From a virus (lineage: Duplodnaviria > Heunggongvirae > Uroviricota > Caudoviricetes), in the IMG/VR virus record IMGVR_UViG_2663763232_000012: a stretch of DNA of 5,560 bases. One strand, 5' to 3'. Within the stretch, counting starts at the first letter, position 1, and the number at the start of each line of letters is the position of its first letter. Shown here piece after piece: positions 1 to 4,656 of the stretch. A model generated the notes under the pieces. It saw nothing but the letters and a program-made list of their open reading frames with translations, had not been told where the DNA came from and did not search any database. Both the position numbers and the translations under genes were made by a program.

Positions 1-205
1 TAAGGCCTTTGAATAAGACAAAAGGCTGCCTCATCGCTAACTTTGCAACAGTGCCCTTTAAAGCACGTTTTAATCCAGGTCGGCCTGTCCTTATTCCGCT
101 TAATTTATCTTCAAATATTTGTTCACATCCTGCACAAACAAGAGCGTTTCGTTGCAGGTCTGTATTCTGGTCATTTGTTGATACCCTTACATAGCCAATC
201 AGCAC
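1..205 (-). pseudogene. pin: Gin/Pin-family serine DNA invertase, 5' fragment only (about 51 native codons); frame then runs into unrelated sequence and off the window
   Basis: Minus-strand GTG at 205 with GGGAG 7 nt upstream. Translation MLIGYVRVSTNDQNTDLQRNALVCAGCEQIFEDKLSGIRTGRPGLKRALK matches the Gin/Pin/Hin N-terminus including the catalytic Ser motif (recalled). From fwd position about 55 leftward the translation (GTVAKLAMRQPFVLFKGL) lacks the conserved GDTLVVWKLDRLGRS block in any frame. Confidence 0.7.
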
Positions 206-259: not shown

Positions 260-285
260 TTATCTAAAACCTCGGTTTACAGGAA
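260..285. other. gix/pix-type invertase crossover site (26 bp)
   Basis: TTATCTAAAACCTCGGTTTACAGGAA differs at one position from the Mu gix site TTATCCAAAACCTCGGTTTACAGGAA (recalled). It sits between the divergent invertase start and the tail-fibre variable cassette, as in the Mu G / P1 C / e14 P segments. Confidence 0.65.
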
Positions 286-1272
286 ACGGTAAACAGGGCC
301 AGGAACGCCGTGCAAAAGAATGGCGATACCTTGTCCGGTGGGCTTACTTTTGAAAACGACTCAATCCTTGCCTGGATTAGAAATACTGACTGGGCAAAGA
401 TTGGTTTTAAAAATAATGCCGACAGCGACACTGATTCATACATGTGGTTTGAAACAGGCGACAACGGCAATGAATATTTCAAATGGAGAAGCCGCCAGAG
501 CACCACAACAAAAGACCTGATGACTCTTAAATGGGATGCTTTGTCTGTCCTTGTTAAAGCCCTTTTCAGCAGTGAAGTAAAAATATCGACAGTCAATGCA
601 CTGAGGATATTTAATTCATCTTTTGGTGCTATTTTTCGTCGTTCTGAAGAATGCCTGCATATCATCCCTACACGAGAGAATGAGGGAGAAAATGGTGATA
701 TAGGGCCACTACGCCCCTTTACGCTTAATCTCAGAACTGGTCGGATAAGCATGGGGCATGGTCTTGATGTTACAGGGGATATATTTGCAAACCGTTTTGC
801 AATTAACAGTAGTACCGGCATGTGGATTCATATGCGTGACCAGAATGTTATTTTGGGACGCAATGCGGTATCCACCGATGGTGCGCAGGCATTACTTCGT
901 CAGGACCACGCTGATCGCAAATTTATGATTGGTGGACTGGGGAATAAGCAATTTGGCATCTACATGATTAATAACTCAAGGACAGCCAATGGCACCGATG
1001 GTCAGGCGTACATGGACAACAATGGCAACTGGCTTTGCGGTGCGCAAGTTATTCCCGGCAATTATGGTAATTTTGACTCACGTTATGTGAGAGATGTCCG
1101 ACTTGGTACACGTGTTGTTCAGACTATGCAAAAAGGCGTGATGTATGAGAAATCAGGTCATGCAATTACGGGGCTTGGCATTATCGGTGCAGTTGATGGC
1201 GATGATCCGGCAGTATTCAGACCAATACAAAAATACATCAATGGCACATGGTATAACGTCGTACAGGTGTAA
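268..1272 (+). CDS. Tail fibre protein, C-terminal variable (receptor-binding) cassette; 5'-partial and promoterless silent copy of an invertible segment
   Basis: Open frame from the TAA at 265-267 to the TAA at 1270-1272; the GTG at 310 is probably not a real start. Ends match side-tail-fibre C-terminal regions (DWAKIGFKNNADSDTDSYMWFETGDNGNEYFKWRSRQSTTTKDLMTLKWDAL ... NFDSRYVRDVRLGTRVVQ ... DGDDPAVFRPIQKYINGTWYNVVQV) with a divergent middle. The frame enters through the inner half of the gix site and is followed by a tfa gene. Confidence 0.8.
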   Translation, partial: NLGLQETVNRARNAVQKNGDTLSGGLTFENDSILAWIRNTDWAKIGFKNNADSDTDSYMWFETGDNGNEYFKWRSRQSTTTKDLMTLKWDALSVLVKALFSSEVKISTVNALRIFNSSFGAIFRRSEECLHIIPTRENEGENGDIGPLRPFTLNLRTGRISMGHGLDVTGDIFANRFAINSSTGMWIHMRDQNVILGRNAVSTDGAQALLRQDHADRKFMIGGLGNKQFGIYMINNSRTANGTDGQAYMDNNGNWLCGAQVIPGNYGNFDSRYVRDVRLGTRVVQTMQKGVMYEKSGHAITGLGIIGAVDGDDPAVFRPIQKYINGTWYNVVQV

Positions 1273-1275
1273 TTT

Positions 1276-1803
1276 ATGCAGCATTTAAAAAATATTAAGT
1301 CTGGAAATCCAAAAACAAAAGAACAATATCAGCTAACAAAGAATTTTGATGTTATCTGGTTATGGTCCGAAGACGGAAAAAACTGGTATGAGGAAGTGAA
1401 AAACTTTCAGCCAGACACAATAAAGATTGTTTACGATGCAAATAATATTATTGTCGCCATCACCAAAGATGCCTCCACGCTTAACCCTGAAGGTTATAGC
1501 GTCGTTGAGGTTCCAGATATTACAGCCAACCGCTGCGCTGATGATTCCAGTAAGTGGATGTTTAGGGACGGAGCTGTGGTTAAACGGATTTATACGGCAG
1601 ACGAGCAACAACAACAGGCCGAATCACAAAAGGCCGCATTGCTTTCCGAAGCTGAATCAGTCATCCAACCGCTGGAACGCGCTGTCAGGCTGAATATGGC
1701 AACAGACGAGGAACGCACACGACTGGAAGCATGGGAACGCTACAGTGTTCTGGTCAGCCGTGTGGATACGGCAAATCCTGAATGGCCACAAAAACCAGAG
1801 TAA
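1276..1803 (+). CDS. tfa: Tail fibre assembly protein (Mu U / Tfa family)
   Basis: 175 aa; AGGTG SD 7 nt upstream of the ATG. N-terminus [48 protein letters not shown] and C-terminus [33 protein letters not shown] are typical of U/Tfa chaperones (recalled); lies directly after the tail-fibre cassette. Confidence 0.85.
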
Positions 1804-1825
1804 AAATTAAGGCCCGATACCGGGC
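1802..1825 (-). terminator. Weak candidate intrinsic terminator for the minus-strand transcript
   Basis: Hairpin GCCCG-ATAC-CGGGC (1812-1825) is followed on the minus strand by CTTAATTTTT (rc of 1802-1811). The stem is only 5 bp and overlaps the last codons of the ParB-like ORF. Confidence 0.2.
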
Positions 1826-2238
1826 AAAACATCCGTCAACAGTTCATCAATTTCTGTCGGGCCGAAGCCTGTCAGGGAGACATCAAAATCAGCATTGATT
1901 AGGTCCGACAGCTCCATCCGCAACAGATCTTCATCCCAGCCAGCATTCATCGGTAGGCGATTATCTGCCAGGCGGTACGCCTTTTTCTGCTCATCCGTCA
2001 GGCCAGACAGAACAATGACCGGAACAGAATCCATTTTGAGCATTTCAGCCGCCATAACACGACCGTGACCCGCAATAATTTCGCCCTTTTCGTCAATCAG
2101 CACCGGATTAGTCCAGCCGAATTGCTTAATACTTTCTACCAGTTGTGCCACCTGCTCAGTACTGTGCGTCCTGGCGTTGTGCGCATACGGTGACAATTCT
2201 TGTAATGGGCGATAGACTATCTTTAATTTCTCGCTCAT
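1807..2238 (-). CDS. ParB-like nuclease-domain protein (ParB/Srx fold), standalone 143 aa; possibly the N-terminal remnant of a ParB-methyltransferase fusion
   Basis: MSEKLKIVYRPLQELSPYAHNARTHSTEQVAQLVESIKQFGWTNPVLIDEKGEIIAGHGRVMAAEMLKMDSVPVIVLSGLTDEQKKAYRLADNRLPMNAGWDEDLL shows the ParB N-terminal-domain pattern (YxPLxxL..Y..NxRxH, GHGR motif, following AxxxADN segment). The GFGPTEIDELL tail resembles the linker before the catalytic domain in ParB-MTase fusions. The ORF ends 3 bp from the convergent tfa stop. Confidence 0.75.
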   Translation of the reverse strand: MSEKLKIVYRPLQELSPYAHNARTHSTEQVAQLVESIKQFGWTNPVLIDEKGEIIAGHGRVMAAEMLKMDSVPVIVLSGLTDEQKKAYRLADNRLPMNAGWDEDLLRMELSDLINADFDVSLTGFGPTEIDELLTDVLPGIGP

Positions 2239-2250
2239 ACAGCCTTGCTT

Positions 2251-2289
2251 TATGAATAAAACGCACCCCAGCAGCCAGTGCTACTGGGG
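2251..2289 (-). terminator. Candidate rho-independent terminator between trkG and the ParB-like ORF
   Basis: Inverted repeat CCCCAGCAG / CTACTGGGG (2266-2274 / 2281-2289, one mismatch, 6-nt loop) followed on the minus strand by TGCGTTTTATTC, placed 88 bp after the trkG stop and before the ParB-like start. Confidence 0.3.
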
Positions 2290-2375
2290 GCGGAGGTGTT
2301 GCTGGTAAAGTTAGGTATTGGATCAATGAGTGAGTCAATATAATATTAAACTCACAATTATAAATCAGCCATATA

Positions 2376-3833
2376 TTAGGAGCGCCAAAAAAAACCTGAA
2401 AACAATATAATAACAGGATAAATTTCAAGGCGACCAAGAATCATAGCTATGCACATTAAATATTTTGCAATGTCATTAAGCACTCCGAATGACGATGCAG
2501 TAGCCCCAAAACCTAATCCCATATTATTAATACATGCAGCCACTGTTGCAAATGATGTAAGAAAATCATATCCCATACCATTTAACACCAGTATAAAAAA
2601 CACCGTGAAGAGAGTATAAAGAAAAAAGAAACTCCATACAGACCTCATTACACGATCTGTAACTATCTTCCCTCCTACATTTACACTCAACAACGCTCTG
2701 GGATGAGAAAGCTGATTTATCTCGTGTTTGCTTTGTTTGAAAAGTATAAGAAATCGAAGTGACTTAATTCCACCACAAGTTGAACCTATACATCCCCCAA
2801 AGAAACTTGACGACAGCAAAAACACTATCGTGTGCGTGGGCCAGTTTGCATAATCCTGCGTAGCTAAACCATTATCAGTGAGCATGGAGCTGGCAAGAAA
2901 AAACGAATGAATAAAACTTCCATGCAAGTCATACATACCTATATGCCAGACCTGGAAAGAGGTAACAATGATCACCCCTAAGGCTATTAACAGAAAGAAA
3001 CGAAGTTCAATATCTCTGATTAAAGGTTTTATCGTTTTCCTGCTAATAACAATATACCAAAGAGTGAAGTTGAAAGCCGATAGCAGGGAAAAAGAACCAG
3101 CCACCAGCTCAACCAAATAGTTATTAAAATATCCGATACTCTCGCTATGAGTTGAGAAACCACCAAGCGAAACTGTGGAAATCCCGTGACAAATAGCATC
3201 AAACAAAGGCATTCCTGCAAGTCTATAACAGACAATACAAGCAATACCTAATAAAGAATAAGTTATCCACAGTGTCCGTGACGTATCGGCCAGGCGGGGA
3301 GTGAGTTTGTCATCCTTAAATGGCCCCGGCATTTCTGACTGATAAAGCTTTGTACCACCAATACCCAATAATGGCAATACAGCAACCGCCAGAACAATAA
3401 CTCCTAAACCACCTATAAAATTTAACTGTGACCGATAGTACAAATATGCCCGAGGTAATGAACTAACATCATCAATTACAGTTGCTCCTGTTGTTGTTAT
3501 TCCAGAAACCCCTTCAAACAGAGCATCAATGAACGTTAAATTAAGTTCTGAGTCAATCCATAAAGGGAATGCACTAATAACAGAAAACAAAATCCAAAAC
3601 ATTACAATTATAATAAACCCATCACGGGTACGTAATTGAATGCCAGATTTCTTAGTTGTATACCACGCTCCGCCACCAATGCAAAAAAATATAACGAAAG
3701 TTATAAAGAAAACGAACAGGCTTTTTTCTTTATAAAACAATGCTACAACCATTGGTGGCAACATTGAAAGACTATAGAGCCAAACCAGGAACCCACACAT
3801 ATGAGTAACAACTCTTACATGAGATGTATTCAT
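2376..3833 (-). CDS. trkG: TrkH/TrkG-family potassium uptake membrane protein (prophage-borne trkG-like)
   Basis: Polytopic hydrophobic protein with TrkH-family motifs (GITTTGATVIDD selectivity-filter-like segment, GGFSTH, NNMGLGFG, GRLEI). ATG at 3833 gives 485 aa (MNTSHVRVV...), the length I recall for E. coli Rac TrkG; an in-frame TTG at 3851 with AGGTGG 6 nt upstream gives 491 aa. Visibly AT-rich relative to its neighbours. Confidence 0.85.
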   Translation of the reverse strand: MNTSHVRVVTHMCGFLVWLYSLSMLPPMVVALFYKEKSLFVFFITFVIFFCIGGGAWYTTKKSGIQLRTRDGFIIIVMFWILFSVISAFPLWIDSELNLTFIDALFEGVSGITTTGATVIDDVSSLPRAYLYYRSQLNFIGGLGVIVLAVAVLPLLGIGGTKLYQSEMPGPFKDDKLTPRLADTSRTLWITYSLLGIACIVCYRLAGMPLFDAICHGISTVSLGGFSTHSESIGYFNNYLVELVAGSFSLLSAFNFTLWYIVISRKTIKPLIRDIELRFFLLIALGVIIVTSFQVWHIGMYDLHGSFIHSFFLASSMLTDNGLATQDYANWPTHTIVFLLSSSFFGGCIGSTCGGIKSLRFLILFKQSKHEINQLSHPRALLSVNVGGKIVTDRVMRSVWSFFFLYTLFTVFFILVLNGMGYDFLTSFATVAACINNMGLGFGATASSFGVLNDIAKYLMCIAMILGRLEIYPVIILFSGFFWRS

Positions 3834-3878
3834 ATCTAAATATTCTTTCAATTATAACCACCTTGCTGCAATATTATG

Positions 3879-3884
3879 ATTATA
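3879..3884 (-). promoter_or_regulatory. Candidate -10 hexamer for trkG transcription
   Basis: Perfect TATAAT on the minus strand (fwd ATTATA 3879-3884) about 28 nt upstream of the TTG/SD; no convincing -35 at 17-bp spacing (TAAGAG at best). Confidence 0.2.
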
Positions 3885-3970
3885 CTGTATAAAATTTAAC
3901 TCCTCTTAGATCTTACTTCACTGTTCCTTATGAAACAATCATCAAAATGAATCATATTGTAGTTAAGATT

Positions 3971-4435
3971 TTACTTTAAACACTGCTCGGTTATGTATTG
4001 CTGAGCACCTTCAAGTTGGGCCTGCATCATTACCAGTCGTTCCCGGAGGGTGAAATAATCCCGTTCAGCGGTGTCTGCCAGTCGGGGGGAGGCTGCATTA
4101 TCCACGCCGGAGGCGGTGGTGGCTTCACGCACTGACTGACAGACTGCTTTGATGTGCAACCGACGACGACCAGCGGCAACATCATCACGCAGAGCATCAT
4201 TTTCAGCTTTCGCATCAGCTAACTCCTTCGTGTATTTTGCATCGAGCGCAGCAACATCACGCTGACGCATCTGCATGTCAGTAATTGCCGCGTTCGCCAG
4301 CTTCAGTTCTCTGGCATTTTTGTCGCGCTGGGCTTTGTAGGTAATGGCGTTATCACGGTAATGATTAACAGCCCATGACAGGCAGACGATGATGCAGATA
4401 ACCAGAGCGGAGATAATCGCGGTTACCCTGCTCAT
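3971..4435 (-). CDS. Rz: Rz i-spanin (inner-membrane spanin), lambda-like
   Basis: [134 protein letters not shown]... is near-identical to lambda Rz (recalled). The ATG at 4435 overlaps the endolysin stop as ATGA; the track ORF extends 4 codons further to a GTG. Confidence 0.9.
4030..4215 (-). CDS. Rz1: Rz1 o-spanin (outer-membrane lipoprotein), embedded in the +1 frame of Rz
   Basis: [57 protein letters not shown]... carries a lipobox (VVGC) and the proline-rich segment, near-identical to lambda Rz1 (recalled), and lies wholly inside Rz. Confidence 0.85.
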
Positions 4436-4656
4436 TGTTGCCCCCACAAACAGACCTCACGCTCAATCTCACGACGAGTCATCAGGCCTTTCCATTGCTT
4501 ACCGCCAGCGTATGCCCAGCGACGTAGCTGGTCACATGCGCCCTTGATATCGCCCTGGTTTATTTTGCGAAGAAGAGTAGATGTTCTGAAATTGCCTGCG
4601 CCCACGTTATAGACGAACGAGTAAAGAGCGCCGCGCGTTGTTTCCGGTAGGTGCGA
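4432..4656 (-). pseudogene. R: SAR-type endolysin (GH24 lysozyme, phage 21 R-like), 5'-truncated; only about the C-terminal 73 codons remain
   Basis: The minus-strand frame ending at the TGA (4434-4432) translates to ...[72 protein letters not shown], matching the C-terminus of R21-type lysozymes (recalled). An in-frame stop lies at 4659-4657, and no frame upstream encodes the N-terminal SAR or catalytic region. Confidence 0.75.

Follow-up and report, generated by a model that had tools for sequence, protein, structure and literature searches.

The window analysed here, the whole stretch of 5,560 nucleotides in virus record IMGVR_UViG_2663763232_000012 (Caudoviricetes), is E. coli DNA from a heavily eroded lambdoid prophage of the Rac type. 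Closed E. coli genomes such as those of S43 and AH04 are 100% identical to it over 5.5 kb, and at least 80% of the window is present in 24 genomes. The annotated gene order in AH04 runs from IS26 through a truncated pin recombinase gene, a C-terminal tail-fibre fragment, the tail-fibre assembly gene tfa and a 'ynaK' pseudogene to trkG, the Rz lysis gene, a partial lysozyme gene and lambda-like early-left genes with xis and int. The open reading frame under study (1807..2238, minus strand) starts with ATG, encodes 143 amino acids, and is identified as a ynaK remnant by Pfam, PHROGs and PGAP. It is convergent with a tfa gene of the U' type (1276..1803, plus strand; Pfam Caudo_TAP, E 5e-37), which belongs to an invertible segment with the same layout as the homologous Mu-like G segment in locus L011. 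On the other side lies trkG (2376..3833, minus strand; Pfam TrkH, E 9e-144), a low-GC cargo gene, or moron, delimited by its GC profile and PGAP coordinates, which occupies a slot between the lysis genes (Rz) and ynaK and has its own terminator. It has been reported that in other prophages this slot holds the LT-IIc enterotoxin operon beside a parB-like gene (PMC3252337). Several features of this arrangement had been pointed out in a preliminary description of the DNA, and are borne out by the coordinates and profiles: three bases separate the stop codon of the ORF (1807-1809) from the convergent stop codon of tfa (1801-1803); GC content is about 0.49-0.51 over the ORF vs 0.32-0.42 over trkG; and between the two genes there is an intrinsic-terminator-like hairpin with a 10-bp stem (7 G-C pairs) followed by the T-tract TGCGTTTTAT (2256..2289, minus strand), downstream of trkG and about 20 nt upstream of the ribosome-binding site of the ORF. 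A terminator scan of the window, which placed it at 2289..2266 on the minus strand, gave 6 terminator-like sites vs 2.2 expected from shuffles.

Traces of other rearrangements are visible towards both ends of the window. Its start falls inside IS26, the terminal inverted repeat of which (GGCACTGTTGCAAA) lies at 42-55 on the minus strand, and this element truncates the pin-type recombinase gene (56-205, minus strand). The tail-fibre variable segment has at its start, at 260-285, an inversion site of the pix/gix type, TTATCTAAAACCTCGGTTTACAGGAA. At about 4432-4650 there is a second rearrangement junction, where a lysozyme (rrrD) fragment without its N-terminus abuts lambda-like early-left genes on the opposite strand (DUF1317, DUF1382 and a TraR/DksA-family gene).

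The 143-aa product was predicted to contain a ParB/Srx N-terminal domain with a GHGR motif, and this is confirmed by profile search, in which residues 23-90 (1969..2172, minus strand) match ParB_N (PF02195) significantly, scoring 30.7 bits where the gathering score is 26.3 (E 3.4e-7). Of 102 relatives, 97 match ParB_N as well. The GHGR motif within this match (residues 57-60, window 2059-2070) lines up in profile alignment with the GERR box of Noc and ParB, retaining the glycine and the last arginine, with histidine in place of glutamate and glycine in place of the first arginine. The LTGF and EIDELL motifs that had been read as following the domain are likewise present, at residues 121-134 (SLTGFGPTEIDELL), and in the AlphaFold model they are part of a helical extension of the N-terminal module (approximately residues 102-134; 1837..1935, minus strand) in which G123 and F124 are nearly invariant among the 102 relatives. 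This model of the 143-aa product (pLDDT 92.6) has a complete ParB/Srx-fold module in which residues 1-134 are ordered, helices spanning 102-114, 119-122 and 126-134, and only the last 8 residues are disordered. Foldseek comparison returns ParB (6sdk), Noc (7nfu, TM-score 0.72), KorB N-domains and sulfiredoxin, with E about 1e-6 for the CTP-binding proteins. The module is widespread, being matched by 37,490 cluster representatives at E <= 0.001, and homology regularly spans residues 3-140, ahead of variable C-terminal parts. The retained part is exactly one complete structural module, and as such residual activity is possible.

Phage records annotate this protein as a 'chromosome (plasmid) partitioning protein', and its fold is nearest to those of ParB and Noc, as would be expected of a partition-type, centromere-binding ParB or of a 'ParB-like nuclease' acting on DNA alone. 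With the CTP-switch proteins ParB, Noc and KorB it does share the fold of the N-terminal domain and a G-x-x-R box at the same position, but YnaK has GHGR and not GERR, has no HTH domain and is encoded in the context of a phage late operon, where ynaK sits beside the terminase genes. The partition-specific model TIGR00180 (parB_part) scores 39.8 against a cut-off of 58.45, neither the remnant nor the intact protein has an HTH DNA-binding domain or a ParB C-terminal dimerisation domain, and no parA is annotated nearby in either the window locus or the intact phage. A role in partition, or as an autonomous nuclease, is therefore very improbable.

The ORF is a truncated gene, a deletion remnant of a Rac-type ynaK, as the preliminary description had supposed of its truncation. 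The same reading frame encodes 262 aa in strain T28R and 263 aa in phage vB_EcoS-666R9 (URC10144.1), and both proteins are identical to the product of the window ORF up to ...TDVLPG, after which they continue with TGN(K/E)EEPYTTKIDTPVYEPSGGKPD.... The best PHROGs match of the ORF is phrog_620, 'ParB-like partition protein', and of the 217 positions of this profile the ORF covers 3-141 (E 4e-71) and the intact protein 3-217 (E 1e-90), which makes the ORF only part of a protein of this family. Over residues 1-140 its identity to intact Rac-type YnaK is 98-100%, and Rz, trkG and the terminator are alike upstream; the difference lies in the linker and the helical module of about 100 aa with which intact YnaK continues, and in the TAGT, terS and terL genes that follow it, all of which are absent in the window. 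No homologue with a native length of about 140 aa, which would have spoken for a naturally short protein, was found among close relatives, and two metagenomic relatives of 140 aa and 133 aa, at about 60% identity, may themselves be fragments. The trkG-ynaK locus is present in 1,590 of 5,426 complete E. coli genomes, and in 914 of these genomes the match covers at least 80% of a query consisting of ynaK and the first part of the downstream gene. Comparison with the Rac prophage of E. coli K-12 gives the same picture, since K-12 has this gene (ynaK, b1365, 87 aa) at the corresponding position downstream of trkG, 99.5% identical in the shared DNA and likewise a deletion remnant. The K-12 gene is cut even shorter, at about codon 85 and so inside ParB_N, and runs on across its junction into ydaY, a fragment of the tail assembly chaperone gene. 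In the window copy all 140 codons of the module survive, and the junction is with the tfa terminator. PGAP calls the gene in the window a ynaK pseudogene (L001), and in closed genomes its label for the first 258 nt is 'ynaK, ParB/Srx family N-terminal domain-containing protein, incomplete, missing C-terminus'. As such the ORF is already known as an annotated pseudogene fragment, the remnant is an ordinary one, and in itself it changes little. In-frame internal deletions of ynaK between short direct repeats, such as DEDLL...DELL, are found in other ynaK alleles (P0026, P0043, P0065, P0079, P0081 and P0085), and show that erosion of the gene is ongoing even where both ends survive.

The preliminary description went further in taking the ORF for a probable truncated ParB-methyltransferase. 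The truncation and the retained ParB/Srx N-module stand, but the part that was lost is no methyltransferase, since the full-length copies of 262-263 aa have only ParB_N in Pfam and no methyltransferase domain. The N-module, including the LTGF...EID helices, is common to phage ParB-methyltransferase fusions (phrog_498; Vibrio phage X29, Psychrobacter phage pOW20-A), with 50-55% identity over residues 3-140. Phage matches at this level of identity are annotated as methyltransferases or methylases, phrog_498 ('DNA methyltransferase') scores 176 bits with the window ORF, and 13 of the 102 sampled relatives (50-68% identity), a minority, contain N6_N4_Mtase. Fusions of this kind are confined to more distant relatives, at 50-60% identity. 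However, phrog_620 scores 240 bits, the N6_N4_Mtase domain that follows the module in the fusions is absent from the close relatives of the ORF, and all near-identical (97-100%) full-length copies are 262-263 aa long with a C-terminal module that is not a methyltransferase. In addition, the precursor-like prophage L079, which is discussed below, has the TAGT-partner module at the deleted position. That the ORF is the N-terminal stump of a ParB-methyltransferase fusion from which the catalytic domain was deleted is thus hardly credible.

The part that is missing can be described from the intact phages, in which the gene order is lysis genes, trkG, ynaK, TAGT, terS, terL, and head and tail genes. 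Intact YnaK is composed of the N-terminal ParB/Srx module (residues 1 to approximately 137), a disordered linker (approximately 140-165) and a C-terminal helical module. The C-terminal 123 aa have no Pfam or NCBIfam match, and the structure model of this region, a disordered linker with a confident helical core, has no match in the PDB at E < 1. The C-terminal module, in the 120 aa that the window ORF lacks, has about 90 homologues at 42-70% identity, most of which are stand-alone proteins of 127-145 aa without a ParB domain. This stand-alone family is unnamed, its members are about 133 aa long, and its homology to intact YnaK begins near residue 146 (C-terminal module and stand-alone loci: L007 21323-21691, L012 4001-5246 and L015 4001-5274). 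In both marine-phage neighbourhoods that were examined the stand-alone gene is directly upstream of a TAGT (PF20691) glycosyltransferase gene, overlapping it in one, and no ParB gene is called nearby in these two neighbourhoods. In intact Rac-type phages TAGT is the next gene after ynaK (Pfam E 1e-34; phrog_842), followed by terS and terL. Homology of the C-terminal module to stand-alone TAGT-linked proteins suggests a fusion, and from these sequence relationships intact YnaK appears to be a ParB CTPase-fold module joined to a protein family that travels with TAGT.

It has been shown that thymine dioxygenases of phages (5mYOX) require as activators ParB-like proteins in which a nucleotide-binding domain is followed by an unstructured segment and a C-terminal domain, and that neither the N- nor the C-terminal domain of these activators is dispensable (PMC13229309; bioRxiv 10.1101/2025.08.14.668559). 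Phage DNA glycosyltransferase genes have also been reported to have ParB genes as neighbours (10.1101/2023.12.21.572611). Intact YnaK is like the 5mYOX activators in its domain layout, with an unstructured segment of about 30-50 aa and no DNA-binding domain, in the histidine that replaces the catalytic glutamate of the GERR box, and in that both adjoin DNA-hypermodification enzymes. There is also an invariant asparagine where a change of Q52 to N is described (PMC13229309). The neighbour of YnaK is, in contrast, a TAGT glycosyltransferase and not a dioxygenase, and the C-terminal module of YnaK is akin to the TAGT-linked family. No 5mYOX gene is annotated in intact Rac-type phages, and so a role as activator is something that we infer from the analogy. 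By this reasoning the probable task of intact YnaK is to direct the glycosyltransferase encoded next to it, TAGT, to its position on phage DNA or to activate it there. A fusion of ParB to a TAGT partner would extend the idea of a ParB-like activator of a DNA-modifying enzyme from dioxygenases to glycosyltransferases, and suggests that Rac-type coliphages may modify their DNA.

The event that produced the remnant could be reconstructed from L079 (IMGVR_UViG_2534681704_000006), which is 100% identical to the window from Rz through nt 421 of ynaK and has the tfa/tail-fibre segment 10 kb further downstream, in the same orientation as in the window. In silico removal of 10,021 bp from L079, with ends at ...GCCCGGTA / CAGG and ...GGCCCGCTA / TCGGGCC (cut at the slash) between two TAs, yields window positions 310-4348 with 1 mismatch in 4,039 nt. 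The deletion of the downstream domain together with the head and tail genes that had been suggested is thereby reproduced, and it extends to the packaging genes as well. Junction comparison and the in silico deletion place the junction at a TA dinucleotide (1818..1819). To the right of it, to 2238 and beyond, the sequence is that of ynaK-trkG, and to the left it is that of the terminator and tfa. Codons 1-140 of the ORF accordingly derive from ynaK, codon 141 lies across the junction, and codons 142-143 and the stop codon are supplied by the tfa terminator sequence; the upstream genomic context (Rz, trkG) is conserved, and the deletion has put tfa in place of the downstream context. The right-hand partner belongs to a bidirectional terminator, of which it is the loop, situated where the U and U' tail-fibre assembly genes converge. 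A hairpin, GCCCGGTATCGGGC (1812..1825), is formed at the junction, as seen in a fold scan and from the partner context in L011 and L079, with one arm from ynaK and the other from the bidirectional U/U' terminator, and on the minus strand it continues into CTTAATTTTT. L079 is itself deleted from terL into a minor-head gene, and decay was therefore stepwise. In the sequence of events that we propose, the precursor prophage had already been damaged when 10,021 bp were lost between the TA at nt 420-421 of ynaK and the TA in the U/U' terminator loop. With them went the linker, the C-terminal module, TAGT, the terminase genes and the remaining head and tail genes, and the leftover is predicted to encode a complete and well-folded N-module with three foreign terminal residues.

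The position of this cut in ynaK is shared with many other prophages. The 240 retrieved relatives fall into 80 distinct ynaK junction types, 38 of which have their junction at codons 140-142, at the same TA (window 1818-1819; L007 21322-21323), while the next commonest positions are represented by 5 and 4 types. A scan of IMG/VR anchored at the gene start, and so independent of this hotspot, gave 21 distinct breakpoints in ynaK, with 7 of the 21 at nt 420/421. At the DNA level, six independent junction types share ...TTTTGCCCGGTA and then diverge, their partners being the tfa terminator, sitA, a coat gene, terL and two tail-fibre sites. Partner sites lie from 0.36 to more than 14 kb downstream, and the mapped ones all have the same orientation; there is one inversion-type case. 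A TA sits precisely at the crossover point of the intact partner in 17 of the 18 contexts that were inferred and in each of the 10 that could be read directly, with little further homology. The sequence A(C/T)CGGG, which repeats CCCGGT in inverted orientation, is over-represented in the right flanks of the partners, with a near-perfect match in 4 of 18 partners vs 2.5% of all TA sites. Prophage decay at the ynaK locus is non-random, and between a third and a half of the independent deletion types in which the virion genes are lost, and trkG and the lysis genes kept, go back to one dinucleotide. Recurrent donor positions elsewhere in ynaK are nt 26, with three partners, and nt 563, with two.

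The hotspot falls at the joint between the two protein modules of YnaK, and it could be argued that the remnant is a domesticated, functional stand-alone ParB module, with a role for example in stress or antibiotic tolerance or in DNA or nucleotide binding, such that selection keeps the N-module and favours a cut at the module boundary. The cut does leave a complete, confidently modelled module, and dozens of independent truncations stop at the same codon. In a library screen, six antibiotics had MICs 3-6 fold higher when the even shorter K-12 YnaK (87 aa) was overexpressed (PMC12924614), and orphan ParB-CTPase-fold proteins are reported to be common on mobile elements, in work cited in PMC13229309. 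However, the truncations share one exact nucleotide position as their endpoint instead of a zone, which speaks for a mechanism and against selection as the cause, and the tails that have been fused to the module are arbitrary and often out-of-frame sequence. In other lineages, including K-12 and B strains, the cut is inside the module, at codons 9, 77, 85 and 92, and in-frame internal deletions of the N-module are also found. Variant sites in the N-module of intact copies comprise 7 synonymous and 17 non-synonymous ones, the latter including changes in GHGR, as compared with 2 and 5 in truncated copies, although these sites are too few to inform a test of selection. The remnant is also preceded by a terminator and has no promoter. 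We consider domestication an unlikely explanation.

Expression of the remnant, and what its product may still do, are best considered in this light of a deletion remnant. No promoter for the ORF scores above background in a scan of the window, and neither the late-gene activator Q nor a holin is annotated in the remnant prophage; read-through from the trkG promoter into the remnant is possible. The window copy is unlike the 5mYOX activators in that the C-terminal module is wholly absent, and since those activators need both domains the 143-aa product is most likely without that function. Because it has lost the C-terminal module, TAGT, a late promoter and any annotated Q, and because it sits behind the trkG terminator, the product is most likely a decaying, non-functional relic. 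It may at most keep nucleotide binding, or have an incidental effect when overexpressed. Taken together, this account of the ORF as a deletion remnant of ynaK, left when the virion genes were lost, is highly probable; within it, the role of intact YnaK with TAGT outlined above is a probable one, and the present product is most likely a relic.

The cause of the hotspot is a separate matter. Junctions elsewhere in ynaK have ordinary microhomologies of 1-7 nt, of any sequence. This suggests that the TA is the terminal dinucleotide of a DNA end that is fixed. We tentatively suggest, as one possibility that falls short of being the probable one, that the hotspot TA may be a sequence-specific site of breakage or strand transfer, from which a fixed end is rejoined to TAs downstream. 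Candidate activities would be the pac cut of a headful terminase, a nick that a phage protein introduces in or close to the gene encoding it, or a pseudo-site of a recombinase or transposase. The terminase is of the headful type, TerL having Terminase_6N/6C and TerS resembling those of F116 and Bcep22, and a pac cut may be one such cause. If a specific break of this kind is indeed made, the hotspot would repeatedly convert active Rac-type phages into defective remnants that carry trkG, and an enzyme making it would explain, in a way open to testing in E. coli, how prophages come to be domesticated repeatedly. Since the hotspot is exactly at the joint between the ParB module and a variable C-terminal module, the same process could also drive domain swapping in the family. 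We found no paper on the hotspot, on a Rac-type pac site or on YnaK function beyond the MIC screen, and both the nucleotide-exact recurrent deletion endpoint and the fusion of ParB to a TAGT partner are worth following up.

A number of other causes were considered and rejected. The deleted side of the intact hotspot flank has 9 bp (TACAGGAAA) in common with the pix half-site (window 260-285), where they are the outer 9 bp. A pseudo-site for a Pin/Gin-type invertase was dismissed, as the invertase, which would cleave 12 bp in from the outer end, would cut at GC and not at the observed TA, and the pix core is TC. A composite element around trkG was rejected, there being no inverted hotspot motif (TACCGG/TACCGGG) in L007 11029-21747, which includes trkG, and so was IS-mediated adjacent deletion, as there is no IS element at any junction. 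A general TA-specific enzyme of the IS630/Tc1 type does not accord with the any-sequence microhomologies at junctions outside the hotspot, and there is no preference for CTAG. Headful cutting of an oversized genome is unlikely, since the size distribution of the deletions, 0.36 to more than 14 kb, has no peak and is weighted towards short ones. With a fold z-score of -0.8, the DNA around the hotspot has no significant local secondary structure either.

Some distal endpoints also lie close together or recur. Those of the K-12 ynaK-ydaY junction and of an independent hotspot junction (P0058 type) are about 26 bp apart, at L007 approximately 32722 and 32748, in the ydaY or tail assembly chaperone gene, where they flank a short hairpin, GCGATA...TATCGC. 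One acceptor site, in the 8-bp palindrome GGTTAACC (L007 26795; L079 5835), has been taken by several donors, namely the ynaK hotspot in the P0004 and L067 types and a terL donor in L079.
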